Shown: piece by piece, positions 45,117 through 61,824 of the stretch
Layout: each line of letters begins with the position of its first letter
How positions within the stretch are numbered: position 1 is the stretch's first letter
Virus record (IMG/VR): IMGVR_UViG_3300020577_011595
Span: 1 to 64,000 of that record
Reading direction: 5' to 3' (one strand)
DNA length: 64,000 nucleotides
Source: a virus
Lineage: Duplodnaviria; Caudoviricetes
The notes under the pieces: generated by a model
Told to the model about the DNA's origin: nothing
Databases searched by the model: none
What the model saw: only the letters and a program-made list of their open reading frames with translations
Program-made: the position numbers and the translations under genes

Positions 45117-46532
45117 TCAGACGCCCAGCGAACCCGCCGCGCGACCGATGTTCTTCACCACGACGTTCTTGGTCGGGGTGTAGCACTTGACGGCGCCGTA
45201 GATGACCTGCGTCCAGCGGATCGACGTGTCGACCGCCGCGAGGGGGATGCGGGTCATCGGGAGGAGCTGCGACCACGAGAAGCTGCGGCTGTTCTGCATG
45301 AGCACGAAGCCCTTGCTGGTGCCGGGGATGTCCTCGTTGACGTCGGTGATGACCTGCGTGGCGCCCGAGCGGGCCACGCGCGTCATCAGCTTCGCCGTGC
45401 TCGCCGCACCGCCGAGCGTCGAGCGGAACACCTCGTAGAACGTGGTGTCGGGGCCCGCGTCGGAGACCGTGAAGGTCACGGCGTCGCCCGCCGCAACGGC
45501 CACGCTGGCCGAGGTCACGGCCGCCGAGAGACCGCTCTTGTTGCCCGCCACCACCTTGTAGATGTAGGTGCCGGCGTCCGCCGTGCCGAACTGCGAGCTG
45601 GCGCTCGCACCGGCCGCCGGAGCGACCGTGATCGTCGGGGTGCCGGGGCGCTTGTCCGCGCGTCCGAGCGCAGCCGAGCGAGCCGCCTGGCCGGGCGTGA
45701 TGAACACGTGGTCGTGCAGGTTGATCTTGCCGTGCTGGCCCTGGAACGCGGTGATCGTCGTGCCGAGGGTGCCGGGCGCGGGGGCGTACGCGAACCGCTG
45801 GCGGTCGTACACCTGCTTCGCGAGGTCGGCGTAGGGGCCGGTCCCGAAGTAGGCGTCGGTGGCCTGCCCGTAGTTGTCGCGGATGGTGAGCAGCATGTCG
45901 TTGAGGGCGTCCTCGGTGAGCACGCCGCCACGCAGGTCGATCACGTTGTCCGGCGCGCCGTCCTCGACGAGCTTGTAGAGGCCGTCCCACTGCTCGGGGA
46001 TGAGCGTGGAGTCGCCGAAGAACAGGGCGTTCTCGAGGTTCCGCAGCAGCTCCATGGTCTTGTTCATCGTCTCGAGGGCGATGACGTTGCCGTGCGCCGC
46101 GCGGATCGTGTTCGCGACGTGCGTCACGCGACCCGTGATGCCCAGGAACTTGATCAGCACCGTGACGCGCTCGAAGGTGCTGTCCTGCTCGTCGGGCAGG
46201 CCGCCCTCGGAGAAGAACCCCTGGTTGAACGAGCGAGCGCCGCCCTCGCCGTAGGAGACGAGGCGGTTGAACTCCTCGACCGTGTTGCTCGCGGGCACCT
46301 TCGGGATGGACTTGAAGAGCTTGATCTCGTCCATCTCGTAGGTGAGGTTCTTGAGCGTCGCCTCCAGCGACTCGGTGCGGAGAGGGAAGCCCTCGCCCGC
46401 GGCCGTGCCGGGGTTGTTGACGTCGCTGCCTGCGCTGAGCGCCTTGTGCAGGTCGGCGATCTCCGTGGCCGAGGCTCCGATGCCTCCCGCGGCGCTCCCG
46501 TAGTCCTGCATCGAAACGAAGGGTCCGAGCAT
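45117..46532 (-). CDS. Major capsid protein (Twort/SPO1-like)
   Basis: ATG at 46532 with an AAAGGA RBS; LHKALSAG..LRTESLEATLKNLTY, VEEFNR, LP.A..D....W. Confidence 0.92.
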   Translation of the reverse strand: MLGPFVSMQDYGSAAGGIGASATEIADLHKALSAGSDVNNPGTAAGEGFPLRTESLEATLKNLTYEMDEIKLFKSIPKVPASNTVEEFNRLVSYGEGGARSFNQGFFSEGGLPDEQDSTFERVTVLIKFLGITGRVTHVANTIRAAHGNVIALETMNKTMELLRNLENALFFGDSTLIPEQWDGLYKLVEDGAPDNVIDLRGGVLTEDALNDMLLTIRDNYGQATDAYFGTGPYADLAKQVYDRQRFAYAPAPGTLGTTITAFQGQHGKINLHDHVFITPGQAARSAALGRADKRPGTPTITVAPAAGASASSQFGTADAGTYIYKVVAGNKSGLSAAVTSASVAVAAGDAVTFTVSDAGPDTTFYEVFRSTLGGAASTAKLMTRVARSGATQVITDVNEDIPGTSKGFVLMQNSRSFSWSQLLPMTRIPLAAVDTSIRWTQVIYGAVKCYTPTKNVVVKNIGRAAGSLGV

Positions 46533-46600: not shown

Positions 46601-47596
46601 TCAGCGGTAGGAGAGGGCGGTCTGCGCCTCCCCCGGGTTGGTCGCGAGGAAGCGGTGGACGGCGTCGAGCGCCGAGGCCGGGAGGTGGCCGCCCGACTCG
46701 TAGATCGAGGCGATGTCGGTCGCGCGCTGGCCCCCGATGGTGCCCCACCGCTCGCCCTTCTCGAGGCCCATGTAGCTGAGCGTGCTCACCACCTGGGACT
46801 TCGTGAGGGTCGGCGCCTGCCCGCGACCCGGACCGCCGGCCTCGCCGGGCATACCCTTGTGGAGCGGGCGCGCCGTGCCGGTCAGGCCGCGCTGCGGGCG
46901 GGGCGTGCTCTCCAGCATGCCCAGGCGCGCGCCCAGGGCCGCGATCACGGCCTGCTGGGACTTCACGAGCTGGCCGGTCGCGACCGCCGCGACCGTGATC
47001 TTGTGGAGCAGCGCGTCCGTCCGGTCGCTCCGCGCCTCCATCGACTTCGCGAGGCCGTCGAGCAGCTCGGCGTGCGCGGTCGCGAAGTCGGCCATGAAGG
47101 GCGAGACGTCCATCGCGTCGGCGATCGACTGCTCGCCGCGCTCGTTCACGTAGTCGCGCAGGGCGTCGAGGGACTTGCCCATCTTGCCCTTGCCGCCCGT
47201 GGGGCGGACGCGCGGGTTGGGGGCCACGCCGCCCTCCGTCGAGGCCGGCTTGCCGAACTTGCCGGCCAGCTCGGGGACCTCTCCGTCGCCCTCGCCCTCG
47301 TCGCCGTCCGGCTCCTCCTCGTCCTCGCTCTGCTTGCCCCGCATGAACGCGGCGATGTCGCCCGCCCCGAAGCCGGCGTCGATGAGGCTCTGCGTCATCT
47401 TGCCGATCATCATCGAGTCGAGCCCGCCGACGTCGCCCTGCTCGGGGTAGCCGCCCGAGGTCGAGCCCCGCTCGTCGGTGTGCCCGCCGGTCTCGACGGC
47501 CACGCCGCCGAGCGCCTTCGAGAGGTCCGCAGCGCGCACCAGCTCGTTGAGGGTCTCGTCGATCCCCTCGATCGTCGTCTCGTTGTCCTTCGCCAT
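46601..47596 (-). CDS. Scaffold-like protein
   Basis: Acidic/helical protein between protease and capsid; several xxKS/KA motifs. Confidence 0.7.
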   Translation of the reverse strand: MAKDNETTIEGIDETLNELVRAADLSKALGGVAVETGGHTDERGSTSGGYPEQGDVGGLDSMMIGKMTQSLIDAGFGAGDIAAFMRGKQSEDEEEPDGDEGEGDGEVPELAGKFGKPASTEGGVAPNPRVRPTGGKGKMGKSLDALRDYVNERGEQSIADAMDVSPFMADFATAHAELLDGLAKSMEARSDRTDALLHKITVAAVATGQLVKSQQAVIAALGARLGMLESTPRPQRGLTGTARPLHKGMPGEAGGPGRGQAPTLTKSQVVSTLSYMGLEKGERWGTIGGQRATDIASIYESGGHLPASALDAVHRFLATNPGEAQTALSYR

Positions 47597-47607
47597 GGAT
47601 CTCTCCT

Positions 47608-48357
47608 TCACTCCGGCGGCGCCGGATGGTGCTTGCATGCGTAGCTGGCGATGCGCTCGGCCATCGCCTTCGTGAGCTGGGGGTTGCGAGACATCAGGAA
47701 GAGCACCGCTTCGCTCTTCGTGAGCTTCTTGCGCTTCTTCTTGGGCTGCTCCGGCTCCGGGCGAGCCGGGGCAAGCCCCTCGAGCGCCTGCACCCGCATC
47801 GGCCCGGCGTCGCCGGGCGAGCCGCCCGCCGTGGAGCCGGACCCGACCGAGAGGCTCTTTGCCAGGGTCGAGAGGTTCGTGCGGTCGTTCACCGGGCAGC
47901 GGGTGATCGCGACCTCCCGAACGATGGCCTTGCGAACGCGCCGGGGGTCCGCGGGGTCGCGATCGATGATGGAGCCCTCGACCGAGAAGCCGAGGCGACG
48001 GGGCGCGCCCGACCGCTCCAGAGCGGTCGCCAGGTTCCAGATTTCGTCCGCGGGAGGGTGGCCCTTGAGCAGGTAGCCCTCGACGTACCAGCCGCGGCGA
48101 CCGTCGGGGAGCGTGCGCAGCTCCGCGCGCTCGGGGTAGCCGACCGCCTTGCCCGTCTCCTTGAGGTGGTTGTCGTTGAAGAACCCGCTCTTGAGGAAGG
48201 GTGAGAAGTCGAGCCCTTCCTGCACGAGCACCTCGTGCTGCTTGTCGAGGTGGTCGGTCGACACGATGCCCGCGATGCGCCGCTCGCGACCGGGCTCCGC
48301 CGAGGCCTTCTCGAAGGTCTCGAACTCGAACTCGAAGTTGAACGGGGTGCCGTGCAT
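47608..48357 (-). CDS. Prohead maturation protease
   Basis: IAGIVSTDHLDKQHE, FFNDNH, YVEGYL, LGFSVEG, VAITRCPVN. Confidence 0.9.
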   Translation of the reverse strand: MHGTPFNFEFEFETFEKASAEPGRERRIAGIVSTDHLDKQHEVLVQEGLDFSPFLKSGFFNDNHLKETGKAVGYPERAELRTLPDGRRGWYVEGYLLKGHPPADEIWNLATALERSGAPRRLGFSVEGSIIDRDPADPRRVRKAIVREVAITRCPVNDRTNLSTLAKSLSVGSGSTAGGSPGDAGPMRVQALEGLAPARPEPEQPKKKRKKLTKSEAVLFLMSRNPQLTKAMAERIASYACKHHPAPPE

Positions 48358-48466: not shown

Positions 48467-48679
48467 TCAAGCGCGAGGCACAACGGGTCGGGGCGCCTCC
48501 GCCTTCCGGGGCTCCTGGGAAGGCACGAGCGTGCCGATGATCACGCCCCGCTTGCAGGTCGGACAGTTGACCTCGGCCTCCCCCGACTTGTGGAGCACGA
48601 GCATGCTCGTCGAGGCCTTGCGCTTGCCGCCCGCGCCGTCGCGAAACAAGGGCTGGCCGCAGTGAGGGCACGCGCTCAT
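48467..48679 (-). CDS. Small zinc-ribbon protein (Com-like)
   Basis: ATGA-coupled; CPHCG...VNCPTCK, 70 aa. Confidence 0.7.
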   Translation of the reverse strand: MSACPHCGQPLFRDGAGGKRKASTSMLVLHKSGEAEVNCPTCKRGVIIGTLVPSQEPRKAEAPRPVVPRA

Positions 48680-50595
48680 CGGAGGCTCTTCTTCGCGGGC
48701 TCGCTCGTGCGGCCCGCGCGGAGCCACGCCTTGAACCGCTGGATGGGCCACGAGCGCACCGTTCCGAGCAGACGGGGTCCCTTCGCGTCGTAGTTGCGGA
48801 GGTAGGCCGCGCGCGCCTCGGCGATCGTGCGGAACCCGAGCATGACCTTGTGCTCGTCGAACCCGCCGCCCTCGAGCTTCTTCTGGTTCACGATGAACAC
48901 GCGCTCCGAGTCGCGATGCGGCCCGACGAAGACGTCGATGTCCTCGCCGTCGGCGCCCTTGGTGCCCTCGATGAACCCGTAGGGGTGCACCATCGTGGTC
49001 TCACCGTGCTCGCGCTTCTGCGGGTCGTACCAGCGGCGGACCGATCCCTTCGGGTTCTCGATCGCGACGTCGAGGCCCTGCACCACGAGGCGGTCCTTCA
49101 CGGGGAGGTTCTTGATCAGCGACGCCACGCCGATCGGTCTGAAGATCAGGGACTTCTTCGTCTCCCACGGGGGCAGCTCGAACCCGAGCTTCTCCTCCGC
49201 GTTCGTCTCCCACTCCGCCAGATCGCCTCGGATGGTCGGAGACTTCGACGTGCGAAGCGCCGTCTCACGCATCTTCACGAGCTTCGCCTTCGCCTCCTCG
49301 ATCTTCCCTTCCTTGGCGAGCCGCTGCGCGACGGAGAACCCGCCATCCCAGAAGAGCTGGTCGCTGCTCCGCTTCTTCTCCTCGCCGGGCATCTTGACGC
49401 CGTGCTGCTGGTAGAGCGCGCGCAGCCGCATGATGTCCTCACGGCGCTCGTCGAAGATCCCCTCGCTCTTCGCGGGGGCCGCCTTGCCGATGTCGTAGAG
49501 CACCACCTTGCCGGCCTTGTCGAGGCCCACCTGCACGTCGTCGTTGAGCGCGTAGCCCTTCTCGTGCATCGCGAGCAGCGCCGTGCGCGCGTCATCGAGC
49601 TGCGCCTGCGTGAGCTTGCTCGGGATCTCGACGTAGGGCTTGATCTGGAAGCCCTTGTCGCCGTGGTGGACGTACTCGCTCCGCAGCATGCCGGGCACGC
49701 CCGCGCTCGCGAGCTTGTTGCCGACCTCGACCTGCTTGCGCAGCATCTCGTTCGCGTCGCGCGGAGATCGGTGCCCCGGGTTGAACGGCTGGTAGGGGAC
49801 GGTCGTCGAGACCTTCACGACCTTGTCGCCCACGCGGAACGCGATCCCGTCGTCGCCCTTGCCGAGCAGCTTCGCCTTGCCGGAGATCACGGCGTCGATG
49901 TCCGGCCGACCCGACGCTGGAAGGTCGACGCGGCCCTCGAGATCGTTCTGGAGGTGTCGGAACGACGCCGCGGGCATCTTGGTCCCGTAGCCGCGCTCCA
50001 GCCCTGCCGCGGATGACGCGATGCGCACCGAGCCGTCTGCGTCCTGCGCAGCGTGCACCTCGAGCGGGTGGGCCTTCTCGCTGCCTGCGATGGCGGGGTG
50101 GACCTCGATCACGTGCTTCCCCTCGATCTTCTGCGGCGGGGGAGGCGGCGCCTGGCGCGCGTCGAAGAGGCTCGCCTGCTGCGGCGCCCGGGGCGCCTGC
50201 TTGGGGGTGTGCGAGAGCAGGTCGAGCTGCTGCGGCTTCTTCGCGGGCTCGGGCCCCTTGGGCGCTTCGGGCGCCCGCCCGAAGCCCAGGGCGCTGGCGG
50301 TGTGGGGGTCGAGCTTGGAGGGGTCGAGCTTGACCTTGCCGGCCCGGTTGCAGGTCCGGCAAGGGGCGCTGCTCACGACCTCTCCGCCCCCCATGATCAT
50401 CTGCCGGCTGATCACGTGCCGGAGCCCATGGCACACCGAGCACGAGCCGCCCTGAGCCCCCGCCCCCTGCCTCTTGGCCGACGGGTCCTCGTACGGGATC
50501 GTGTGGGCGGCGTCCGCCCACTTCCCGCCGCGCGGACCGTAGAACAGCCCCTTCCGCAGTCGCCCCGCGGTGTGCACGCGCACCGGGCGCCTCAC
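48676..50595 (-). CDS. Polyvalent protein: GPRGG peptide + kinase-like domain + InPase domain
   Basis: GTG in a GTGA overlap; LLGKGDDG..VVKV...HEKGYALND...VVLYDIG; IENPKGSVR...YGFIEGTKGADGEDIDVFVGP...FDEHKVMLGF. Confidence 0.8.
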   Translation of the reverse strand: MRRPVRVHTAGRLRKGLFYGPRGGKWADAAHTIPYEDPSAKRQGAGAQGGSCSVCHGLRHVISRQMIMGGGEVVSSAPCRTCNRAGKVKLDPSKLDPHTASALGFGRAPEAPKGPEPAKKPQQLDLLSHTPKQAPRAPQQASLFDARQAPPPPPQKIEGKHVIEVHPAIAGSEKAHPLEVHAAQDADGSVRIASSAAGLERGYGTKMPAASFRHLQNDLEGRVDLPASGRPDIDAVISGKAKLLGKGDDGIAFRVGDKVVKVSTTVPYQPFNPGHRSPRDANEMLRKQVEVGNKLASAGVPGMLRSEYVHHGDKGFQIKPYVEIPSKLTQAQLDDARTALLAMHEKGYALNDDVQVGLDKAGKVVLYDIGKAAPAKSEGIFDERREDIMRLRALYQQHGVKMPGEEKKRSSDQLFWDGGFSVAQRLAKEGKIEEAKAKLVKMRETALRTSKSPTIRGDLAEWETNAEEKLGFELPPWETKKSLIFRPIGVASLIKNLPVKDRLVVQGLDVAIENPKGSVRRWYDPQKREHGETTMVHPYGFIEGTKGADGEDIDVFVGPHRDSERVFIVNQKKLEGGGFDEHKVMLGFRTIAEARAAYLRNYDAKGPRLLGTVRSWPIQRFKAWLRAGRTSEPAKKSLR

Positions 50596-50792
50596 GTGCG
50601 GGTCCTGTCGTGGAGCTGCGTCAGCGCCCGGTTGAGGCTCTCCTGCGTCGGCGCCGTCGTTGGCTTCTGCGCCTTCGGAGCGGCCGCGGGGCAGGGCTCG
50701 ACCGCGGCTTGCGACGACGCGGCGCAAGCGCACTGCCGGCATGCCTCGGCGCGATAGTCCCATCGGTGCGTCCCGTGCGCGATCCTCATCAT
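50592..50792 (-). CDS. Small Cys-containing protein (66 aa)
   Basis: Coupled overlaps at both ends; HRW..ACRQC. Confidence 0.55.
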   Translation of the reverse strand: MMRIAHGTHRWDYRAEACRQCACAASSQAAVEPCPAAAPKAQKPTTAPTQESLNRALTQLHDRTRT

Positions 50793-52537
50793 GGCGTCCT
50801 CGCACCCTCGTAGGCCCGGTGAACGAACGCGAACTGCCGAGGGAACCCAAGCATGAGCCTGTCCCGCTCGAAGAGGTACATCCGCGTCACCTCGGCTGCG
50901 TTCTCGATCGGGAGCTTCTTCGCGTACGGCGAGACCCAGCCCTCGCGCTGCGACACGGCCCACAGGCGGTCGTGCCACTTCCGCACCGGCTCCGGGCCGC
51001 CGAGCACCCGCATGAGGTAGACGTTCAGCGCGTGCCCCAGCTCGTGCCGGATGACGCGGGGCCACCGCTCGATCGGGAGCGCGGGGTTCACGCGGATCTC
51101 GTTCGCCGTCCAATAGGCGTAGTCGTGCTCCTCGAGCGGGTTCTGCGCGCGCGGGTGGTCCGTCGTGATCAACGTGACCCCCGTGTCCTTGCGGAAGAGC
51201 CACGGCGGCGCCTCGGCGACGATGCTCTCGACGACCTGCCGCTGCATCGGGTCTCCGATGCGCACGACGACGCCCTGCTCGGGCACGACGGCCCGATGCG
51301 TGAGGTGTGGGCCTTCGGCCTTGCGGAGCGCCTCGTGGGCGAGCGCGAGGCGGTCGCTCTTCCGCAGCATGACCTCGGGCATCATCTCGCCCGTCTCGGG
51401 ATCGAAGGTCCAGCCCTCGGGGACCTCGACCAGCTCGCAGGCGCACCACGGGTGCACGGGGCCGACGGTGGGCTTCCACGCCGTGCGCTTCACGCCGACG
51501 TTCGTCCCGTTCGCCGTCAGCTCGGAGAGCCGGAACACCTTGGGAGGCGACCCCGGGCCCGCGGTGAGGTGGAGCCGGATGCAGTCGGGGCACGCGGTCG
51601 GCGACGGGAGCTTCGCCACGCGGATGTCCTTCGGGTTGCGGCCCTTCGCCATCCCGCGCGCGAGGCCTTCCTGCATCGCGAACTGCTGCTCGGTCGCCGC
51701 GAGCCGCTGCATGTCCCGGGACCAGTCCTCGGTCGCGTGCCCGATGTCGCTCGCCAGCTCACGCCACGCGCCCTGCCGATCGATCGAGTCTTCCAGCTCA
51801 CGCTGGATGGTGCCCATGTACCTCCGCCGCTGCTCGGCGTCCGCGTCGAGCACGAGCGCGCCGATCTCCAGCGCGAGTCGATCGCCCATGCCGCGCACGT
51901 ACTGCCCCGCGTGGTAGCGGGCGGCGCCCATCGCCTGCTTGTCGACCTCGGTGAGGCTCTCGCGCGTGCGGTCGAGGTGGGCGACGAAGTCGTCGATGGT
52001 CTGGTCCTCGTGCGTGCGGCGGCCCTTGGGATCCGCCGTCGCGCGGCCGTACTGGTAGGCGTAGTCGAGCAAGCGCAGGGCCGGGGGCCCTGCCTTCCCC
52101 GCTTCTCCCGACGCGAAGATCGTCGAGAGGTCCGACGGCGTGATCCCCAGGCTCAAGAGCCGCTGTAGGTCCTCTCCGGGGATCGCGTCGGGGCCCAGCA
52201 CACCGACCGCGAACGCCGCGTGATGATCGCGCACGATGGCCTTGAGCGCCTCGAGCTGCGCGGGCGTGAGCAGCGCGAGCTTCCGCTGTGCGGCACTCGC
52301 GCGGGCGGAGTCGGGCGCCGAAGCGAAGCCCACCATGTCCGGCCACGAGACCTCGTCGACGAAGCCGTTGGACTTGCGGAGCTTGCCCCCGAGCACCTCC
52401 TTCGCGATGTAGCGAAGCAGCTCCGCGAAGATCCGATCCACGAGCGCGTCGTAGGCCTTCCCCACGCGCTCGTGGAGCTGGCGCATCGCCCGGGATCGGA
52501 TCTTCTCCGGCTGGTGCTCGTGGTCGGGCGCGCGCAT
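50789..52537 (-). CDS. MuF-like head morphogenesis protein fused to a HExxH peptidase
   Basis: RLAATEQQFA..ACPDC..PVHPWCACEL (MuF); IRHELGH...WVSPYA...ENAAE. Confidence 0.82.
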   Translation of the reverse strand: MRAPDHEHQPEKIRSRAMRQLHERVGKAYDALVDRIFAELLRYIAKEVLGGKLRKSNGFVDEVSWPDMVGFASAPDSARASAAQRKLALLTPAQLEALKAIVRDHHAAFAVGVLGPDAIPGEDLQRLLSLGITPSDLSTIFASGEAGKAGPPALRLLDYAYQYGRATADPKGRRTHEDQTIDDFVAHLDRTRESLTEVDKQAMGAARYHAGQYVRGMGDRLALEIGALVLDADAEQRRRYMGTIQRELEDSIDRQGAWRELASDIGHATEDWSRDMQRLAATEQQFAMQEGLARGMAKGRNPKDIRVAKLPSPTACPDCIRLHLTAGPGSPPKVFRLSELTANGTNVGVKRTAWKPTVGPVHPWCACELVEVPEGWTFDPETGEMMPEVMLRKSDRLALAHEALRKAEGPHLTHRAVVPEQGVVVRIGDPMQRQVVESIVAEAPPWLFRKDTGVTLITTDHPRAQNPLEEHDYAYWTANEIRVNPALPIERWPRVIRHELGHALNVYLMRVLGGPEPVRKWHDRLWAVSQREGWVSPYAKKLPIENAAEVTRMYLFERDRLMLGFPRQFAFVHRAYEGARTP

Positions 52538-52549
52538 GGCTCCGCCAGG

Positions 52550-53344
52550 CTAGCAGCCCGTCGGAGGATCGGTCACGAGGTCGCCGAGCACCGCGTAGGT
52601 GACGACGACGTCGTTCTCGTCGTCGAGGTTCTCCAGCGTGAGCGCCGAGCAGCTCAGGGACGCGAGCAGGAACGCGCGCACGTCCTCGGCGCCGTCCGAG
52701 CCGCTCGTGTCCGCGGGGACGAGCAGCGTGATCGGGGTCTGCCCCGCACCCGCGTCGGTGCCGTTCGTCGTGCCCGTCGAGAGGCCCAGCGCGGTGAGCA
52801 CGCCCGCGTCGGTGTCCGTGTCGATCACGATGCTGGCCGCCAGCCCGGACGTCGGGCTCAGAAGCCGAAGCTGCGAGCCGCCGTTCGTTCGCGCGATCGT
52901 CGTGGGCACACCGCCCGCGCCCGCGATGCCTGCGAGCGCGGCTGCCGCGTTGATCCGGTTGATCACGGCCGCGAGCGACTGGTCCGCGGAGGTGAACGCC
53001 ACGGTGACCGCGGTCCCCGTGATCTCCAGCACCAGCTCCTCGCCGCCCACGAACCCGGTGGGGTACGAGCCGCCGACTCCCGTGACGATCGCCTGCGTCG
53101 CGCTCGTGCCGCCGGGCGTGAGCCGGATCGGGCCGGTGGCCTCGAAGTAGACGATGCGCGCCGCGGACACGTCGCCGAAGGGCACCGCGAAGTTGGTCTC
53201 CGAGGCCTCGAGCGTGATCGTCCCGCCCTCGGCGTGCTCCAGGGTGTCGAGGAGCTGCTGGAGCGCGCCCTCGAACACGGGCTTGCTCAGGTTGTTCTCG
53301 CGCCCGACCTCCAGGGTCAGGTCCACGTTCACGCGTACGCCCAT
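52550..53344 (-). CDS. Putative structural protein with Gly/Thr-rich insert
   Basis: ATG at 53344 with a GAGGAGG RBS; the insert resembles sheath/fibre insertion domains. Confidence 0.6.
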   Translation of the reverse strand: MGVRVNVDLTLEVGRENNLSKPVFEGALQQLLDTLEHAEGGTITLEASETNFAVPFGDVSAARIVYFEATGPIRLTPGGTSATQAIVTGVGGSYPTGFVGGEELVLEITGTAVTVAFTSADQSLAAVINRINAAAALAGIAGAGGVPTTIARTNGGSQLRLLSPTSGLAASIVIDTDTDAGVLTALGLSTGTTNGTDAGAGQTPITLLVPADTSGSDGAEDVRAFLLASLSCSALTLENLDDENDVVVTYAVLGDLVTDPPTGC

Positions 53345-53346
53345 CG

Positions 53347-55086
53347 TCAGCCTCCTCCTCGCGGGAGCCAGAGATCGATCGCTGCGCGCCTGCCCTGGCT
53401 CTTCTCGAGGCGGTCGCGCTCCCATCGGAGGCTACGCTCCATCGGGCTGCCTGCGTGAAACGGGTGCGCGGGCTCGCCCTGCGACATCTCCGGCCCGGGC
53501 TCGTCGTCCGGCTCGTCGGGGGCCGCGTCCTCGTCGCCCTCGTTCTGCCCGTGCCCGGGGCCGAAGAGGTCGTCGAAGTGATTTTCCCCGTGCGCGTCGG
53601 AGCCGCCACCCATGCCCGCCGTGGCTTCCTGCGCCTGCTGCTGCTGCGCGGAGGCCCACTGAATCCAGTTGGAGTCGAGGATGACGTCGCCGAGCTGGCC
53701 CGGCAGCGGCTCCTCGTTCTCCTCGGCGCGGATCTCGTTGACCGTCTTGAAGGCCTTGACGCGCTCGATCCTCGCCTTCCGCTCTTGCTCCTCGGCCTTG
53801 CTATCGAAGCCCGTGAACGAGAACTCGAAGTCGGGGTTGATGTCCCAGACGATGTGCCGGTTGATCGTCTCGGCGATGTGGTCGAGCAGCGGCCGCAGCC
53901 CCTTGTCCTTGCTCTCCGTGACCTCTTCGGCGTTGGGGCGTGACTGGTTGAGGCTCGAGGACTGCCCGCTGTTGCCGAAGATGAAGTTGATCTCGACGGG
54001 GTCCGCGCCGTACATCGCGCAGATCAGCTTCGTCACCCAGTCCATCCACTGCCCGTACTCCATCTCACGGTTGTTCGTGTGCATGGAGACCCACTGGAGG
54101 TCCTCGGCGTTCACGATGGGCGTCTTCCACGCGTTCGTGACGCCCGAGATCATCGAGTACCACATGCGCCGGAACGCGCGGAGCTGGCGGTCTGGGATCG
54201 CGCCCTTGATGTTGATCAGCCCCTTGATCGCCGAGCCCTGCGTGAAGAACCGGGTGTTGTACTCGAAGCCGAACAGCCACGCGGTCACGAGCCGGATGAT
54301 CTGCTCGATGGGCGAGAAGCCGAACCCGTTGACGCGCAGATCCGAGCGTGGGTTCTTCACGCTGAACGCCAGCTCGTCGGTGGTGAACTCCGAGATCACG
54401 GTGTTCTCGTAGACCTGCACGTAGGCGACGCGCGAGCGGAGGTCCTCCGGCTCGAGGTGCTCGATGTCGCTCACCGCGGGGCGAATCGTCTCGCTCGGGA
54501 GCGCGATGAACCGCGAGGGCCGACCGGCGTAGTCGCGGATCTTCTCGAAGCACCACTGGTCGTAGGTGAGGATGTCGCGCACGCCCTTCTTCACGAAGGT
54601 GCGGAACGAGTCGCGGTCGGCGGGCTTCTCGCCGTCCAGAAGCACGGCGGTCGTTTCGAGGAACCGCTCGATGGCCTCGGCCTCGCGCTGCTCGGCAGGG
54701 CTCATGCCCTTCTTCTGGTCGCGTCGATCGCGCAGCACGACGCGGTAGCCGCGGTCGTACTGGCCCTGCTGCGGAACGCAGAAGGCCGCGGCCTGGTCGA
54801 CGCGGAGCTGGATGATCGCCGCGATGACCGTGTTCGAGACGCTCATCTGCCGCAGCGTCTCGTAGGTGAGGGAGCTGGGGCGCTGGCGCCAGCCGCCCCA
54901 ATCCATGACCGAGTAGGGGTCGTGGAACATCGCCCGAGGCTTCTCGGTCGCGGGCGAGAGCGCATCGGGCATCGCCATGCCGGCCTGCACGAGGGCAGCC
55001 TGCATGGCCTCGGGGGAGACGTCCTCGTCCCCCCCTTCGCCGAGCGCCTTCACGAGCGCGTGGCGCGCTCTGTCGAGCACCGTCAT
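53347..55086 (-). CDS. Portal protein
   Basis: AIIQLRVDQ, DILTYDQ..EK, GFSPIE, FFTQGS..KG, REMEYGQW, GLRPLL, KTVNEIR. Confidence 0.93.
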   Translation of the reverse strand: MTVLDRARHALVKALGEGGDEDVSPEAMQAALVQAGMAMPDALSPATEKPRAMFHDPYSVMDWGGWRQRPSSLTYETLRQMSVSNTVIAAIIQLRVDQAAAFCVPQQGQYDRGYRVVLRDRRDQKKGMSPAEQREAEAIERFLETTAVLLDGEKPADRDSFRTFVKKGVRDILTYDQWCFEKIRDYAGRPSRFIALPSETIRPAVSDIEHLEPEDLRSRVAYVQVYENTVISEFTTDELAFSVKNPRSDLRVNGFGFSPIEQIIRLVTAWLFGFEYNTRFFTQGSAIKGLINIKGAIPDRQLRAFRRMWYSMISGVTNAWKTPIVNAEDLQWVSMHTNNREMEYGQWMDWVTKLICAMYGADPVEINFIFGNSGQSSSLNQSRPNAEEVTESKDKGLRPLLDHIAETINRHIVWDINPDFEFSFTGFDSKAEEQERKARIERVKAFKTVNEIRAEENEEPLPGQLGDVILDSNWIQWASAQQQQAQEATAGMGGGSDAHGENHFDDLFGPGHGQNEGDEDAAPDEPDDEPGPEMSQGEPAHPFHAGSPMERSLRWERDRLEKSQGRRAAIDLWLPRGGG

Positions 55087-55100
55087 CCGCGCTCCTTGGT

Positions 55101-56765
55101 TCAGCCGTGGGCGTTGGGCTTGCCGTGGCAGGTGCAGGGCAGCATCGGGTTCCACAGGTTCATCGCCTTGTGGATCTCGCGACCCGTGTGCACGGGGCAC
55201 TCGGGGGCCGCGCGCGCGACCGGGTCGGCCATGCGGGCGGCGACTCCGCGGACTTCGGCGCCACGTCGCCCGCCCTCGATGAACGCGCGCGCGGGGTCCA
55301 TCGCGTCGGACTTCACGAGGTGCGAGACGTCGTCGTGACGCACAGCGATCTTGCGGGCCGTCGGCGGCGCCAGTTCGGGCTGGAGGAAGGGCGCGATCTC
55401 GTGCGAGCGCGAGAACGCGAAGTCGCCGATCGCCGCGGTCAGGGAGTGCGCGCCCATCGCCGAGTTGCCGTCGTCGCTGAAGGCCGAGTCGGCGCGGGGC
55501 TTGAAGATCCCTCGAGCGACGAGGATCGCCTCGATGCTCGCGCGCGTGACGTCGTACTTCTTCGCCGCGCGCATGAGGTTCTTGTTCCGCGGGATCGTCT
55601 GGACCAGCTCCGACATCACGGCGCGGCTCATCTCGACGACCTGCTCACGCGCCTGGAGCTGCTGGTGCTCGGGCTCGCGAGACTCGTGCTCGTAGGCCTC
55701 CTCGACGAACGCGCAGAGGTAGTCGTAGAGGTACTCCTCGGGGAGGTCCTGGTCCCGGTCGCCCGGGTCACGGAAGGCGTACAGCCCCTTCGCCAGCACA
55801 CGGCCCGCGGGGTCGCGGAGCACGGGCGCAGCGTCCCGGGCAGGGACCGCGCGACGAGAGGGTTGGGGGGCGGCACGCGATCCCTGCCCGAGACTCTTCT
55901 GAAAGCTCGAGGCGAGCGCCGCGAGGCTCTTCTGCGCCGCGGCGTCGTCCTCGCCGTAGGTGAACGGCTTGCTGCCCGCACCTCGGCCGCCGACGCTCGC
56001 CGACCCGGGGCGCTTCGACTTCGGGGGCTTCGGCGGAGCCGGGGGAGGTGCCGGCGGCCCGGCTTGGCCCGCCGACGGGTCCAGCTCGCCCATGAGGGCG
56101 CTCATGGCGGCCTCCCAATCGATCCACGCGCCCATCGCCGCATGCGGCTGCTGCTGCTGGTGCGCGGGCGGGGGAGCGTGGGGCGCCGCGGGCTTGGGAA
56201 CCTGCGGAGCGTGGATCTGCTGGGCGTTCGCCTGCGGCGCCTGCACGGGCGGGCCCTGCGTCGGGTAGCCCTGCGGAGCCATCGGATGCCCCATCGAAGC
56301 GAGCATCGGCGCGAGCTGCGACGCGAAGGGCATCTGCCGCCCGCCCGCGGCCATCATCGCAGGGTGCGCCGCCGGAACCCCAGCGCCCGGCATGCCCATC
56401 GGGGGAGCCTGGCCCACCATCGGCGGCCCCTGGTGCCCCATCATCGGGGGGGCCGCCTGCCCGGCCATCGGAGGCGCTGCCGGACGTGCGGGCGGTCCCT
56501 GGGGCGGGCCATGCGGCGGAGGACCCTGCGGCGGGCCGCCTGCGCCCGCGGGCTTGCCGAAGCCCGTGGGCATGCCCTTCCACATGCTCGGCGTGCCGAA
56601 CTCGTTGGCCTCGGCGGGGCTGGCGAGGCCCTTCGCCATGAACTCCGCGCCCCAATCGACGAACGCCCCTCCGTTGGGGTCGCCGACGTAGTTGGCGGGC
56701 GAGAAGGATCCCTCGGGCAGGGCGATGCCCGTCTTGGTCGTGTGCGTGGTCCGGGGCTGCGTCAT
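55101..56765 (-). CDS. Pro/Gly/Met-rich low-complexity protein, probable internal head protein
   Basis: Long PPQG/PPM tract, at least six xxK[GSA] motifs, and a terminal CPVH...CTC motif. Confidence 0.75.
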   Translation of the reverse strand: MTQPRTTHTTKTGIALPEGSFSPANYVGDPNGGAFVDWGAEFMAKGLASPAEANEFGTPSMWKGMPTGFGKPAGAGGPPQGPPPHGPPQGPPARPAAPPMAGQAAPPMMGHQGPPMVGQAPPMGMPGAGVPAAHPAMMAAGGRQMPFASQLAPMLASMGHPMAPQGYPTQGPPVQAPQANAQQIHAPQVPKPAAPHAPPPAHQQQQPHAAMGAWIDWEAAMSALMGELDPSAGQAGPPAPPPAPPKPPKSKRPGSASVGGRGAGSKPFTYGEDDAAAQKSLAALASSFQKSLGQGSRAAPQPSRRAVPARDAAPVLRDPAGRVLAKGLYAFRDPGDRDQDLPEEYLYDYLCAFVEEAYEHESREPEHQQLQAREQVVEMSRAVMSELVQTIPRNKNLMRAAKKYDVTRASIEAILVARGIFKPRADSAFSDDGNSAMGAHSLTAAIGDFAFSRSHEIAPFLQPELAPPTARKIAVRHDDVSHLVKSDAMDPARAFIEGGRRGAEVRGVAARMADPVARAAPECPVHTGREIHKAMNLWNPMLPCTCHGKPNAHG

Positions 56766-56814
56766 CGGGAGATACTCCTCGGTGCGACTCTACCGCGAGA
56801 GTCGGGGCTCGTCA

Positions 56815-59800
56815 TCAGAACAGGGCGCGCTGGTTCGCGGGCGTCTTCTCGTCGGAGCGGCTCAGAGCTGCCGCGACCGTCTCGCGGAGCACCTCGCCCG
56901 GGCTCTTCGCCGGGCCGAACATGCTGCCCTGGCCCTCGGGATTCTGGCCTGCCCGGCGGACGTAGTCGCGCCAGACGGCGGCCTGCTGCTGCGGGCCCGG
57001 CTTGCGGACGAGCAGCTCGAGGAGCGCGCGGGCATTCTGGTTGTCGACGACGGGGTGCCTCCCGCCGAAGAGGTCGTCGAAGTAGTTGAACAGGCGGTCG
57101 AACGTCTTGGGCTCCATCTTCGGGTCGAGCGCGGGGATCGCCCCCGTCTCGACGCGGTGGTGCAGGTCGTTGTAGGCGGAGAGCGCGACGGCGAGGTCCC
57201 CGCCGACGTCGTAGCCCTTGCCGCCCGAGGTCTTGGCCTGGACCATGTAGGGCACCGCGGCCGCGATGTTCCCGACGATCTTCGGCCCCGTGTTCGAGAG
57301 GATGTCGGCGTCGCCGACGAGCCGGCCGACGAGGATGCGCTCGACGAGCACGCGCCCGTCCTCGTTGAGCAGCTTCGTGCCCTTCTTGAGGTACTGGTTC
57401 GCGTTGCGCTGGTCGATGATGCCTGCGCGCTGGAGCGCGTTCACGAACCGCTCCGAGCGGTTCGACGCGAGGAAGGCGGAGAGGGTCTCGTCCTCCTTCA
57501 TGTCGTTGCCGAGCGCGGCGAGGGACTGCTCGTCGAGCTTGCGGCCCATCGCGACCTGCATCGTTCGCGGGTCCATCGCCTGCGTGAAGCTTTCGTTGAG
57601 CTGGCGCACGAGGAGCTTCTGGCTCGCGGTCGAGGTGTCCTCGGGCTCGATGACGCGCACGAGCACGGGATGCTCGAGGGCGTCGACGTCCTCGGGGCGA
57701 AGCCCGAACTCGTGAGCGTGCTCGGCGAGGTACGCCTTCAGCGCGGCGCCCTTCTCCCCGTGGTGCACGTAGGCATGCTGCATCGACATCGTCCGGCTGT
57801 TGCCGCCGAGCGCGATGAGCTTGCCGTCCTGCTCGATCACGACGGGCGGGCCGTTCACGGCGTCGGGGTTGGTGTTCGCCACGAACGCGGGGTTCAGGCT
57901 CATCGCGTTGCGGAGCACCTTGCCCTTCTCGGCCTCGTCCCGATGGTAGGCACGCTCCTGCACGCCTTCGGGGTAGTCCTCGCGCTTCTTGAAGCCCTTG
58001 AGCGGGTCGTGCGAGGCGACGAGGTCGGAGGCGTTGGCGAGCTTGTAGCGCGCGCGGATGGCCTTGGGCTGGCCCCCGTCCCCCGCCACGTAGACCGCCG
58101 TCGAGCCGCCGTCGGTCTTCGGTGCGGGATGGGGAGCCGCAGCGGGGGCCGCTGCCATGGCGTTGCGGGCCTCGTCGGCGACCTTGTCCTTCAGCCCGGG
58201 GAACGCGCTCGTGAGCAGGTTGAGCTTCTGGATGGCGCTCGAGGCCAGCGCCTCGGCGAGCGCCCGCGCGCGGTCGTTGGTCGACCCGCTCTGCGCCTTC
58301 GCGAGCGCCTCGGAGAGCTTCGCCAGCTCGGCCTCCGCCCGCTTCGCGATCTCCGCGACGCGGTCCGCGAAGTCGTCGGTCTCCGCATCCGCCCCGCCCC
58401 GCAGCTCGACGACGGTGCCGACGTGACCGACCGTGACGCGCGCGCCCGCGGCGAGGTTCTCCGCGCCGCGAACGATCTCCGAGAAGCGCGTCGCGCTCGT
58501 GCGCTGCGTGAGCACGGACCCGATCGCGGCTGCCCGTGCCTCGGGCTCCCACCCGCGGCGCTCGAGGGCCGTGGCGAGGATGCTCTTCGCGCGGAAGGGG
58601 TTGACGCCCGCGCGGCCGAAGGCCTGCTGGAGCTTCGCGTAGACTTCGGGGACCCGCTTCTGGAGCTGCGCGAACCGCTCTTCGTCGGAGCCCTCCAGCT
58701 CGCCGAGCAGCGCCTTGGGGACGTGCCGGAGGACCGCGTTGACCGAGGCCTCGGCGCGCTTCTCCGCCCAATCGTGATAGCGGGTGCCGTACCCGCGGAC
58801 GAGCAGGTTGGCCCACTCGTCGGGCTTGATCGCGCGGACGCGGCCGCCCATCTCGACGTGGACGGTCCCGTCCTTCTCGACCTCGTGGACCTTCGCGATG
58901 CCCTGCCCGTGCCCGAGCGAGACCTCCTCGCCGGCCTGGGCGTCGCGCGCGATGGCGCTCTCGGCGTAGTAGTAGCGCCACGGGCGCTTCGGGTTCCCGG
59001 TGGGCACGCGCCGGACGTACTTGTGGGACGCCGCGCCTGCGCCGGCCTTGTGCAACGCGTGGTAGAGCGCCGCGAGCGCGGCCTGGCTCTTCTCGGTCTC
59101 CTCGTCCTCGGCCTCGTCGTCCTCCTCGGGCTCCGGCTCGGCGCCCGGAGGCAACTGCACGGGCACGACAGGGAGCGGGCTGGCTCGACGCGCCCCCGGC
59201 GTTCCGGCGGGGTCGGCGACTCCAGGGGACGGACGCGGGCCCATCGGCGGGGCGGGCGCCAGGGCATCCTCGCGCGCATCGGGAGACCGCGGGACGCGGC
59301 CTGCGTCGGCCTGCGCACGCGGGGGGTTGCCCTGAGGCATCCCAGGGCCGCCGGCTGCGAGCCGCGGGCGCTGGTGGTCCGCGACCACCAGCGGCGCGCG
59401 CTGGGCGATCTGCGGGCCGCCGACCATCGCCATCGTCCGCACCGCCGGGACGTAGAGGAGCGTGGGGTCGAGGCGCACGTTGCCCGTTCCGTGGAACCCG
59501 TGCGCCCGGGTCGAGGCGTCTGCGTCGGCCTGCCTGCGGTTCACCTCGGCCTCTTCCTCCCGCTGCCGGTGGTCCGCGTCGCGGGGCTGGAAGTAGATGT
59601 CCTGATAGTCGGGGATGGATGCGCGCTGGCCGGGCGCCGCGCCATACGCGGGGCCGATCGACGGCTGCGGCTGGGGCTGCCCGCCGATCATCGCCTTGAT
59701 CATGGTGGGGGTGATCGACCGCTCCATCGGGGCCTCCGCCTTCGGCTTGCGCGGGCGAGCCTGCGTCCGGGCTGCCGCGCGCTCGGGGCTGATCTCGACC

Positions 59801-61824
59801 TTCTCGGGCTGCTCGGGCTCGCCGAGCTGCTGCCGTAGCACGGCGGACCCACGGCGCCCCTTCTGCCTGCCCGCCCACCGCTCGGCGGCGTCGGACGCGG
59901 CCCGCTCGGTCGCGTCCCTGCGTTGCTTCGCCTGCGAGAGGCTCTGGTCGTACGCCTCGCGGTCCGCCTGCCCGCGCGACGCCCGCGAGACGCGCTCCTC
60001 GGCCTCCCCAGCGCCCTGCCTGACCTCGGCGAGGGCCCGGTCGGTGTCGGACCGCGCAGCCTCGTCGAGCCGCCCCAGCGCCGCGTGCGCGGCTTCGACG
60101 TGCTGCTGCGCCTGGGGGTCGTGCCCGAACATGCGGTTGACGTCCTCGGGACTGCCCATCCCGAAGACGTCGAGCACACCGTCGTCGTCGCCGCCCTGGG
60201 GAGGCATCTGGTAGCCCCCGCCCCCGAGCGCGGCGGGGCCCACAGGGCCCTGGGGCGCGGGCTCCGCCTCTCGGGGCGCTGTCGGCTGCGCCGGGGCGCC
60301 AGGAGCCTCCGGGGCGCCGGGAGAGGGCGTCTGCCCCAGGGTGCGCGCGCTCGCCGTGACCGAGGCGAGCCCCTGCTTGCCGGAAGCGAGAGCGTCGGAC
60401 GCGTAGGCCTCGAGCTGCTTGTTCTTCTTTTCGGCGGCCTCGAGCAGCGACCCGAGATCGGGCCCGAGGACCGACGCGGGGGCCGCGCTGCTGTTGAACG
60501 CGCGCCCGAACGCCTTGAGGTTCTCGACGATCTTCGAGTCGCCCTCGGCGGTCTTCGCGCCGGCCTGCCGCGCGCGGAGCCCGACGACGATGTGGTTCAG
60601 CGCCTCTTCGAGCTGGCCCGCGAGCTGGGGGTCGTGCTGGCGGATCGCCGCGACGACCTGCATGCCCTGCTGCCCGATCTCGTTCGCGCCGGGCAGGGGC
60701 TTGGGCTGCGCGCCGGCCGGCTGGGCCGGCGCCGGGGGCTTCTGCCCGGGCGGCTTGGGGGCCGCGCCCTGCGGCTGTCCCGACCCCTCGTGGTAGGGGA
60801 TCGTGTGCTCGGGGTTGGCCCACCGACCGCCCTGCGGGCCCGTGAACAACTGCGCCTTGGCCAGGCCCTCGCGCACCGCCGCTTCCCGCTGGGCAGATAG
60901 TTTCTTCACGCGCTTCTCCAGGTGGTCGACCTCCGAGCGTAGGTCGTGCGCCGCTCGCTCGTCGACGCCGTTCTCGGCGAGCCGCTTCTGCCGCCACGCG
61001 AACAGCGCGTCCTTGCGCGCCTCTTCGCGGCGGTACCTCTCGGGGGTCATCTCGCTCGCGGGTTGCTGCCAGGCGTGCACGTCGCCCATCGCCACGCGCC
61101 GCATCCCGCGATCGAGCGCGCTCCGCTCCCAGCTCTCGGTGAGCGACGCGGAGTCGACGTCTACGAGGTCGGGCACCGTGAGGCGGTCGACGACGGCCTT
61201 GCCCTTCGTGTTCTTGGCCTCGAGCACCTCGAGCGCCGCGCGCTTCTGGCCCAGCTCGTGTGCCGCCTTGCCGAGAGCCTTCGCGGCGCGCTCCAGGGTG
61301 CCGAGCCTGGCAGCCTGCTCCGGGTCCTGCTTCTTCGCGCAGCCCGTGCCCATGATCACGTGACGCCCGTTCGTCAGCTCGACGGCGGCGTGCACCTCGT
61401 GCTCTCTCGCGCACCGCGCGCACACGGCAAGCACGCCGCTACCCGGGATCGGGCGGCTGTACTCGACCCCGAGGTGCCCCTCGACCAGCTCGCGCTCGCG
61501 CGTGTCGCGGATGCCGACGATCCGCTTGATCTTCACGTGCTTCTCGGACTCGGAGAGCAGCGCCGGCCGCCCGTGCTCGGCCGGGTTCCAGTGGATCGTG
61601 TGCTGCGGGTCCGCCCACAGCCCACCTTTCGGACCGATGAACGGGCCGCCGCTCATCTTCGCCATCATCGGCACCACGAGCCGGCGCTCGAGGTCGGCGT
61701 AGTAGTCGGGCCGTTCCTGAAGGTGGTTCGCGACCTTGCCGGCCTTCTCGCGCGCATCGCCGTGGCCCTTCTCGCGCTCGTAGGCGATGGCCGCTGCGAT
61801 CTCGGTCGGCGTGGGTCGGTGCAT
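56815..61824 (-). CDS. Giant polyvalent protein (~1669 aa): DUF5661-like N-terminus, two GPxGG peptides, HKYVRR motif, ddrB-like ParB domain
   Basis: ATG at 61824 just after the upstream stop; ANHLQERPDYYADL; SDLVASHDP...VQERAY...NGPPVV...GGNSRTM...PVLVR. Confidence 0.8.
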   Translation of the reverse strand: MHRPTPTEIAAAIAYEREKGHGDAREKAGKVANHLQERPDYYADLERRLVVPMMAKMSGGPFIGPKGGLWADPQHTIHWNPAEHGRPALLSESEKHVKIKRIVGIRDTRERELVEGHLGVEYSRPIPGSGVLAVCARCAREHEVHAAVELTNGRHVIMGTGCAKKQDPEQAARLGTLERAAKALGKAAHELGQKRAALEVLEAKNTKGKAVVDRLTVPDLVDVDSASLTESWERSALDRGMRRVAMGDVHAWQQPASEMTPERYRREEARKDALFAWRQKRLAENGVDERAAHDLRSEVDHLEKRVKKLSAQREAAVREGLAKAQLFTGPQGGRWANPEHTIPYHEGSGQPQGAAPKPPGQKPPAPAQPAGAQPKPLPGANEIGQQGMQVVAAIRQHDPQLAGQLEEALNHIVVGLRARQAGAKTAEGDSKIVENLKAFGRAFNSSAAPASVLGPDLGSLLEAAEKKNKQLEAYASDALASGKQGLASVTASARTLGQTPSPGAPEAPGAPAQPTAPREAEPAPQGPVGPAALGGGGYQMPPQGGDDDGVLDVFGMGSPEDVNRMFGHDPQAQQHVEAAHAALGRLDEAARSDTDRALAEVRQGAGEAEERVSRASRGQADREAYDQSLSQAKQRRDATERAASDAAERWAGRQKGRRGSAVLRQQLGEPEQPEKVEISPERAAARTQARPRKPKAEAPMERSITPTMIKAMIGGQPQPQPSIGPAYGAAPGQRASIPDYQDIYFQPRDADHRQREEEAEVNRRQADADASTRAHGFHGTGNVRLDPTLLYVPAVRTMAMVGGPQIAQRAPLVVADHQRPRLAAGGPGMPQGNPPRAQADAGRVPRSPDAREDALAPAPPMGPRPSPGVADPAGTPGARRASPLPVVPVQLPPGAEPEPEEDDEAEDEETEKSQAALAALYHALHKAGAGAASHKYVRRVPTGNPKRPWRYYYAESAIARDAQAGEEVSLGHGQGIAKVHEVEKDGTVHVEMGGRVRAIKPDEWANLLVRGYGTRYHDWAEKRAEASVNAVLRHVPKALLGELEGSDEERFAQLQKRVPEVYAKLQQAFGRAGVNPFRAKSILATALERRGWEPEARAAAIGSVLTQRTSATRFSEIVRGAENLAAGARVTVGHVGTVVELRGGADAETDDFADRVAEIAKRAEAELAKLSEALAKAQSGSTNDRARALAEALASSAIQKLNLLTSAFPGLKDKVADEARNAMAAAPAAAPHPAPKTDGGSTAVYVAGDGGQPKAIRARYKLANASDLVASHDPLKGFKKREDYPEGVQERAYHRDEAEKGKVLRNAMSLNPAFVANTNPDAVNGPPVVIEQDGKLIALGGNSRTMSMQHAYVHHGEKGAALKAYLAEHAHEFGLRPEDVDALEHPVLVRVIEPEDTSTASQKLLVRQLNESFTQAMDPRTMQVAMGRKLDEQSLAALGNDMKEDETLSAFLASNRSERFVNALQRAGIIDQRNANQYLKKGTKLLNEDGRVLVERILVGRLVGDADILSNTGPKIVGNIAAAVPYMVQAKTSGGKGYDVGGDLAVALSAYNDLHHRVETGAIPALDPKMEPKTFDRLFNYFDDLFGGRHPVVDNQNARALLELLVRKPGPQQQAAVWRDYVRRAGQNPEGQGSMFGPAKSPGEVLRETVAAALSRSDEKTPANQRALF

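Follow-up and report, generated by a model that had tools for sequence, protein, structure and literature searches.

A short peptide coupled to a putative prohead-protease site heads the modules of proteins probably carried in the capsids of uncultured myoviruses

We analyzed the first 64 kb of one 82,495-bp contig with a GC content of 70.5% (IMG/VR virus record IMGVR_UViG_3300020577_011595, positions 1 to 64,000; Duplodnaviria, Caudoviricetes), termed the window below, and found a short peptide recurring in two genes that flank the portal gene, one on each side. This peptide, hereafter designated as the tag, comprises approximately 20-25 residues and has the consensus L-x-K-[AGS]-G-P-[FY]-I-G-P-[RK]-G-G-K-[WY]-A-D-x-x-H-[TK]-I-P-[WY]. 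The motif is real and belongs to a large family, stands at the starts of protein modules, is tightly coupled to a site with a Lys just upstream, occurs in the context of head genes, and precedes diverse cargo. The tag probably marks proteins carried in the capsid. As for its mode of action, we tentatively favor the reading that the tag is a peptide for head loading or retention that is kept after maturation cleavage and coupled to it, and give this reading slightly less than an even chance; cleavage, retention of the tag, docking, and the identity of the partner are what we infer.

An earlier note on the same DNA had proposed three such peptides in two genes, and translation recovered all of them on the minus strand at the positions listed in Table 1. 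On the plus strand, the same stretches are read in unrelated frames and there is nothing there. Exactly three in-frame copies were found in the whole contig by a six-frame regular-expression scan. The next best six-frame match to a profile hidden Markov model (HMM) built from 110 instances scored 5.4 bits, and chance is excluded for the three copies because 45-53 bits stand against a noise of approximately 5 bits (individual scores in Table 1). The sites ending in Lys, which the note had recognized ahead of the peptides, are LRK-G, LAK-A, and MAK-M, the third being atypical in having Met after the Lys. The divergence of synonymous positions claimed in the note turned out to be partial within the genome, in which the codons differ at 1-5 of the 11-12 identical residues per pair of copies, and complete across relatives, the loci of which range from 31 to 71% GC. 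As the codons differ and the flanks are unrelated, a recent DNA duplication was ruled out as the origin of the copies.

The cargo behind the copies is indeed unrelated, as Pfam, AlphaFold2 (AF2), and Foldseek analyses distinguished three different modules, namely a Zn-ribbon followed by a protein-kinase-like domain and an InPase domain, a Cys-rich/coiled-coil module, and a region rich in Pro and Ala that runs up to a ddrB-ParB domain. The first of these belongs to a protein of 639 amino acids (aa), to which a recorded protein of 638 aa is 99% identical. The AF2 model of the 639-aa protein contains confident folded domains at residues ~155-480 (kinase-like) and 497-631 (InPase) with a predicted local distance difference test score (pLDDT) of 98. 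The N-terminal 150 residues including the tag were modeled with a pLDDT of 37-53, and only a two-residue hairpin was predicted around the GPRGG turn. The kinase-like domain, which corresponds to positions 49150-50130 (minus strand) and is fused to InPase, matched the kinase domains of IRAK4 and lanthipeptide synthetases with an E value of ~4e-6 in Foldseek. The second tag-bearing protein, of 1669 aa, was matched by Pfam ddrB-ParB with an E value of 6e-13, and its C-terminal 740 aa are 48-56% identical to those of relatives. Directly upstream of the third tag copy lies a weak match to DUF5661 (PF18905; positions 61684-61779, minus strand). DUF5661 recurs on at least 12 of 120 tag-bearing proteins, and the DUF5661-like stretch may be an N-terminal pro-piece.

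We surveyed the tag family in two ways. First, IMG/VR was searched with a degenerate DNA pattern encoding G-P-x-G-G-x-W-A-[DN]-x-x-H-T-I, for which far less than one chance match is expected by a rough estimate. This search yielded 103 contig stretches with 137 in-frame instances, at most four per open reading frame (ORF). At the positions not forced by the pattern, numbered from the first Gly, conservation was also high: [FY] at -2 (100%), Ile at -1 (86%), Gly at -4 (80%), Pro at -3 (73%), Lys at +5 (79%), [WY] at +15 (100%), and [ED] at +17 (70%). The invariant residues are encoded by every synonymous codon across the loci of 31-71% GC; thus, it is the peptide, not the DNA, that is under selection. 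Second, a 34-column profile was compared with 1.84 billion cluster representatives (metagenome protein clusters at 50% identity), and 779 proteins were retrieved at E<=1e-3, 427 of them at E<=1e-10. These proteins are 260-3135 aa in length and bear up to five tag copies each. The best 150 representatives, when scanned again, contained 351 copies, among which W/Y, HT/HK, and other natural variants were found.

Windows of 45-54 aa covering the tag matched no family in Pfam (E<=10) or NCBIfam (E<=1), AT-hook and the PBCV basic adaptor domain included. No tag was found in PLSDB plasmids by tblastn of the tag peptides, the sensitivity of which may be cut by the low-complexity filter, and a full-text literature search on the motif strings returned no relevant paper. 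A 54-aa tag window modeled by AF2 with 111 sequences gave a pLDDT of 60 and no fold, by which an autonomous domain was ruled out. Because no autonomous fold was predicted, the tag fits a short linear motif that would gain structure on a partner.

The tag is coupled to a putative protease site. Of 342 copies, 80% have the pattern [LIVMFAY]-x-K-[AGST] 7-9 residues ahead of the first Gly, compared with a background of 0.74% per position, and a K-[AGSTQ] pair lies just upstream in 94% of the copies. In the copies aligned at the Lys, the position two before it was occupied by Leu in 64% and otherwise mostly by hydrophobic residues, Asp, Ser, or Glu were weakly preferred three before it, and Ala, Gly, or Ser followed it directly. 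A conserved leader upstream of the Lys was considered as the real signal and ruled out, since only the Leu two before the Lys is conserved. Sites of the same kind are found in other head proteins. The N-terminal arm of the capsid protein bears [DE]-L-x-K-A-L that is invariant in 7 clade members. Furthermore, 13.7% of the lysines in the head-module proteins are in hydrophobic-x-K-[AGS] sites vs 5.8% elsewhere in the genome (Fisher p=1.6e-4), and the proportion rises to 44% in the scaffold and in the protease (7/16 lysines each). Based on the coupling to the tag, the capsid arm, and the enrichment in the head module, L-x-K/[AGS] is most simply regarded as the putative site of the prohead protease. 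HK97 provides an example of a capsid protein cut after a Lys. Separately, the portal alignment ends with conserved ...EKSLRK.

The tag is a header of modules, not a trailer. In 45 of the 150 representatives, the protein starts with the tag after a leader of 6-30 aa and an x-K-[AGS] site, while the remaining 306 of the 351 copies (~87%) are internal and situated at module junctions. No copy is closer than 46 residues to a C-terminus, and the median tag-to-tag distance is 279 aa. A few proteins open directly with M-S-(A)-G-P-F-I-G, which resembles the end expected after cleavage. The domains detected by Pfam on tag-bearing proteins are InPase, ddrB-ParB, ART-PolyVal, LPD1, DUF5661, Zeta toxin/AAA_33, RelA_SpoT, and topoisomerase IB, along with SNF2/helicase, GGDEF, DarA_C, GNAT, PAPS reductase, and others. 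This set is the repertoire that Iyer et al. 2017 described for polyvalent proteins (PMC5512222). With so many unrelated effector modules behind it and every synonymous codon in use, the motif is portable and conserved at the protein level, as had been proposed in the earlier note.

The note had also called for an HMM search for linkage to portal and MuF loci and for diverse cargo, and both were found. Of the 103 IMG/VR stretches, each of which spans at most ~14 kb, 53 contained a homologue of the portal protein, 50 one of the MuF-like protein, and 19 one of the protease, the portals being 29%-73% identical to that in the window. Among three independent contigs, two, which were found through divergent tag variants, had Phage_portal or a protease-scaffold-SU10_MCP series as neighbors. 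Among 185,579 bacterial and archaeal species genomes, there were only 8 tag matches, which reside in contigs of metagenome-assembled genomes or in a Myxococcales chromosome (CP070713.1, with a prophage). The tag ORF lies beside homologues of the portal, protease, or terminase at four of the eight loci and beside a MuF-like homologue only at a fifth, and tag or cargo matches only were found at the other three. No capsid-free context of the tag was seen among the loci examined. The opposite outcome named in the note, homologues mainly in non-virion proteins, was not observed: neither a non-virion context at the loci examined nor a match in PLSDB plasmids was found.

Altogether, we envisage the following course of events for a clade of myoviruses with SPO1-like heads, the capsids of which would carry the modules. 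Each module would consist of [L-x-K / A/G/S] and the tag, then a flexible linker, and then an effector domain. Giant polyvalent proteins would be taken into the procapsid during its building, and the prohead protease would cut after the Lys, at the kind of site also predicted in the capsid N-terminal arm and the scaffold, leaving the tag as the new N-terminus of each released module. The tag, at most a hairpin around the GPRGG turn, would dock on a conserved head component, for which the inner surface of the capsid, the portal wing, the MuF-like protein, and the scaffold are candidates. Docking on the inner capsid surface has parallels in encapsulin targeting peptides and in P1 DarA-Hdf. Through its docking, the tag would bring in the precursor, helped by the avidity of several copies, and would hold the fragments in the head until ejection. 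In PB1-like phages and P1, relatives of InPase and DdrB have been annotated as virion proteins or detected as such (PMC9024508), which supports this reading. It is further supported by the published signals of P1 DarB, P1 DarA-Hdf, encapsulin cargo, and the herpesvirus scaffold that are compared with the tag below.

Several points weigh against the reading above. First, cleavage after the Lys is predicted from sequence patterns only. Second, nine positions are invariant in the IMG/VR set because the search pattern required them to be, and W/Y, T/K, and other variants occur in the HMM set. Third, the tag appears to be missing from cultured phages: tblastn against 50,697 GenBank phage records gave one weak match at E=10, in a search the sensitivity of which may be cut by the low-complexity filter. 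Fourth, the neighboring 1828-aa polyvalent protein has no GPRGG tag and bears another motif ("tag 2"; see below) instead. Finally, the tag is kept in relatives in which cargo and MuF-like head protein form a direct fusion. Several relatives encode a MuF-like core in one ORF with the tag and kinase-like/InPase regions, or with InPase, ParB-like, and tag regions, and the window splits this MuF-cargo arrangement into two genes exactly at the tag. As such fusions need no tag for carriage, loading may not be the main role of the tag. That the tag survives in proteins with covalent carriage hints at a function during cleavage or later, which could be holding in the head, ordered exit, DNA tethering, or aiding the cut.

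A wider claim, which we regard as possible and rather doubtful, is that the tag is a general capsid cargo-loading or retention peptide, the viral counterpart of encapsulin targeting peptides. The same doubt attaches to the specific form of this claim, in which the maturation protease would expose a free N-terminus that fits into a conserved pocket on the capsid protein, the portal, or the MuF-like protein.

Of the alternatives, the one that survives best is that the tag serves processing only, as an extended prime-side recognition or exposure element that makes inter-module junctions good substrates of the prohead protease, lets polyvalent proteins be split into single enzymes, and has no role in loading. 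The register of three residues in which 80% of the copies stand to the K site is well explained in this way, as is the presence of the tag at junctions including those between MuF and cargo, where carriage is already provided, and the first residues of the tag must occupy the prime-side subsites of the protease during cleavage. Nevertheless, we consider this explanation unlikely. No tag accompanies the L-x-K-[AGS] sites of the capsid protein, the scaffold, and the portal C-terminus or many further sites of this kind, so that the protease should not need one, and twenty near-invariant residues far exceed what a cleavage site needs. Moreover, a cut at N-terminal copies preceded by 6-10 residues or none would free nothing useful.

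Somewhat less probable still is that the tag, rich in Arg, Gly, Lys, Trp, and His, binds DNA, or else a conserved host hub, and keeps each effector on the packaged phage DNA, with which the effector would leave the head and act in cis upon entry. In favor of such a tether, both the R-G-G-K-[WY] core and the linker behind the tag, which is often rich in Lys, resemble nucleic-acid-binding peptides. A tag of this kind would stay on the mature module, and the persistence of the tag in MuF fusions is as expected, as is its slight variation while the capsid proteins drift to 32-45% identity. DarA-Hdf of P1 also touches DNA in the head (PMC12810830). On the other hand, the linkers are not basic in this 70% GC phage, and no AT-hook or other nucleic-acid-binding family matched. 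The search of plasmids found no tag either, even though the polyvalent proteins of conjugative elements travel with DNA as well (PMC5512222).

The analogy to the capsid targeting sequence of phage T4, by which the earlier note had explained the peptide, holds only in part, and we judge it improbable that an address peptide brings the protein into the prohead and is then removed. What would be removed in such a case are the 6-30-aa leaders ending in L-x-K that precede 45 N-terminal tags. The conserved part is instead after the cut and not before it, since upstream of the Lys only the Leu two before and, weakly, an acidic residue or Ser three before are conserved, and some proteins start directly with the tag. 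With L-x-K-[AGS] upstream, the tag would be retained; in addition, approximately 87% of the copies are internal, and the tag is kept in MuF fusions. Least probable of all is a passive conserved linker or recombination junction that eases the shuffling of cassettes and carries no signal of its own, because, despite the position of the tag at module boundaries and the great variation of module order and content among relatives, the use of all synonymous codons across the 31-71% GC loci indicates selection at the peptide level and near-invariant Gly, Trp, and His over 779 clusters are not expected of such a linker.

The setting of the tag-bearing genes is summarized in Table 1. Gene calling by third-position GC (GC3) assigned nearly all genes to the minus strand. 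The head module is ordered as the large terminase, 1828-aa, 1669-aa, 554-aa, portal, 264-aa, 582-aa, 639-aa, 86-aa, protease, scaffold, and capsid genes, and family searches identified an adaptor, a tail sheath, and baseplate genes after the capsid gene. The phage is thus a myovirus with an SPO1-like head, and no cultured phage has a major capsid protein more than 35% identical to its own. No terminal repeats were found on the 82,495-bp contig, and therefore the genome may be incomplete; the relatives in IMG/VR reach 96-113 kb. SPO1-like heads are T=16, as are herpesvirus capsids. If this holds for the SPO1-like capsid of the present phage, we speculate that a small genome would leave space for large protein cargo.

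The 582-aa neighbor of the 639-aa protein is probably MuF-like. Its feature score in the ESM Atlas was 0.96 with all of the ten best named clusters being Phage_Mu_F, and its HPWC.C cluster is conserved. Pfam gave no match at E<=0.01 for this protein and called PF04233 on two relatives that have the kinase-like region in common. The 582-aa protein has L-R-K sites at residues 391 and 404, and in one relative (L055:1223-3466), the GPRGG tag is inserted at the L-R-K place, between the MuF core and the C-terminal domain. Upstream of the portal gene lies the gene of a 554-aa protein (55101-56765, minus strand), which bears no tag. Residues 318-554 of this protein correspond to the C-terminal module of a tag-bearing ORF in relatives (e.g., L055:6001-9870), and for this reason the 554-aa protein is probably cargo as well. 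The gene at 48467-48727 (minus strand), situated between those of the InPase protein and the protease, encodes 86 aa with a Zn-ribbon pattern, CxxC...CxxC; it overlaps the InPase gene at the end of the latter and has conserved counterparts in 5 relatives. Two orthologues of the portal protein, L094:3911-6757 (949 aa) and L009:8624-10792 (723 aa), have insertions of ~380 and ~140 aa, respectively, both at the same point (residue ~352-356 of the portal protein in the window). These insertions may be inteins, and Hint/intein Pfam families occur on other proteins of the set.

A second header motif, tag 2, reads R-G-G-K-Y-x-x-R-x-P-x-G-...-W-x-Y-x-Y and has three copies in the 1669-aa and 1828-aa proteins (Table 1). 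With the R-G-G-K-[YW] core common to both, tag 2 may be a sister form of the GPRGG tag.

Table 1. Tag copies, genes, and predicted sites in the window and in the part of the contig beyond it (positions are counted from the first letter of the contig)
Feature	Position	Strand	Basis or remark
Tag copy 1, LRK-G-LFYGPRGGKWADAAHTIPY	50491..50559	-	Starts at ~residue 13 of the 639-aa protein; HMM 52.8 bits
Tag copy 2, LAK-A-QLFTGPQGGRWANPEHTIPY	60793..60864	-	Internal, ~residue 321 of the 1669-aa protein; HMM 44.7 bits
Tag copy 3, MAK-M-SGGPFIGPKGGLWADPQHTIHW	61588..61665	-	~Residue 54 of the 1669-aa protein; HMM 52.8 bits
639-aa cargo gene	48676..50595	-	Leader, tag, Zn-ribbon, protein-kinase-like, InPase; GC3 gene call; Pfam InPase 6e-38
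1669-aa polyvalent cargo gene	56815..61824	-	Two tag copies, one tag 2 copy, C-terminal ddrB-ParB; GC3 gene call
Tag 2 copies	58966-59022 in the window; 66195-66251 and 66702-66752 of the contig, past the window end	-	L-x-K-[AG] site 6-8 residues before each
Major capsid protein gene, SPO1-like	45117..46532	-	phrog_752 1e-90; SU10_MCP
Predicted capsid maturation site D27-L-H-K30/A31	46440-46454	-	Sequence conservation in the clade
Probable scaffold protein gene	46601..47638	-	Position between the protease and capsid genes; K-site counts
Prohead (head maturation) protease gene	47608..48357	-	phrog_1028 2e-48
MuF-like minor head protein gene, 582 aa	50789..52537	-	ESM Atlas; conserved C..HC...HPWC.C pattern
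Portal protein gene	53347..55086	-	Pfam Phage_portal 1e-21; phrog_12 2e-50
1828-aa polyvalent protein gene	Adjoins the 1669-aa gene	-	LPD1 at the C-terminal end
Large terminase gene	67945-69600		Family searches

Injected proteins are the first weapons of a phage against host defenses, and outside T4, P1, P22, and a few others, the cargo of the head cannot be read from sequence. With a header that goes together with the maturation cut, such cargo could be recognized in metagenomes by a rule based on sequence. The tag already links kinases, pyrophosphatases, ParB-like enzymes, topoisomerase IB, SNF2 helicases, alarmone and c-di-GMP synthetases, and zeta-toxin kinases. If our reading is true, it would explain how giant polyvalent proteins are split into single enzymes and would provide a candidate tag for the loading of capsids with proteins. 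If the wider claim of a general loading and retention peptide is true, the full repertoire of injected effectors of thousands of uncultured phages would become readable from sequence, and phage heads could be loaded with proteins of choice by means of the tag. Signals for capsid targeting and polyvalent cargo are both known kinds; the sequence family, the position after the cut, the multi-copy header architecture, and the spread over at least 779 clusters appear to be undescribed in the libraries and papers searched.

Among known systems, one parallel is found in herpesviruses, in which the YYPGE motif of the scaffold binds tryptophans of the portal wing (10.1101/2020.09.30.320457). It is an aromatic/Pro/Gly linear motif of an internal head protein that docks on the portal, and thus only a lead for the portal as the partner of the tag, as YYPGE is on the scaffold, not on cargo, and no sequence relationship to the tag has been shown. 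Encapsulin targeting peptides are short, Gly-rich, located in disordered regions, and load diverse enzymes into HK97-fold shells; the Family 2 motifs (GPTGLGT...) repeat between domains and at termini, and the Family 1 peptide binds a pocket of the shell protomer (PMC8346489). The encapsulin consensus, SDGSLGIGSLKRS or GPTGLGT, differs from that of the tag, GP[FY]IGPRGGKWAD..HTIPW (108-351 instances), and the two have only the Gly-rich character and the disordered context in common. Furthermore, encapsulin peptides have no coupling to a protease, and the shells are not viruses.

P1 offers another comparison, as giant anti-restriction or polyvalent proteins (DarB, and DdrB with ddrB-ParB) are loaded into the head of a myovirus by a signal of at most 30 aa. 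In DarB, the packaging signal consists of the first 30 residues at the N-terminus (PMC9024508), and DarA-Hdf, which is bound to DNA and to the inner surface of the capsid, departs upon ejection (PMC12810830). DarA_C domains occur on tag-bearing proteins. In contrast to the tag, the P1 signal is single and N-terminal, and the P1 capsid protein is cut after Glu (E120/S121), not Lys. No sequence relation to the P1 signal was found by tblastn against the GenBank phages, which should include P1, with a low-complexity filter that may cut sensitivity.

The paper on polyvalent proteins predicts that such proteins are packaged and injected (PMC5512222). The proteins described there resemble the tagged ones in having ddrB-ParB and InPase domains (and LPD1 in the neighboring protein), in carrying several effector domains per polypeptide, and in being encoded among portal, MuF-like, and terminase genes (PMC5512222). 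Term searches of the same paper found no short header motif or hairpin module of the kind of the tag. Embedded peptidases are stressed there for processing (PMC5512222), whereas the cut sites in the present proteins resemble those of the prohead protease.

Finally, the capsid targeting sequence of T4 (IPIII/Alt; Mullaney and Black, cited in PMC9024508 and PMC9026906) is, like the tag, a short portable peptide tied to a prohead-protease site on proteins that are carried in the head and injected. The T4 sequence is ~10 aa in length, strictly N-terminal, located upstream of the L/I-x-E cut, and removed (PMC9024508, PMC9026906). The tag, compared with the T4 sequence without alignment, has no evident sequence similarity to it. 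Unlike the T4 sequence, the tag is ~20 aa in length, predicted to be retained as it lies downstream of the L-x-K cut, mostly internal (306/351 copies), and multi-copy. It therefore differs from a T4-type signal (N-terminal, before the cut, and removed), the conserved site being 5-9 residues upstream of the tag. Since it would be kept and not removed, the tag would point to a step after cleavage, such as holding in the head, ordered exit, or DNA tethering, that lies outside the T4 model.

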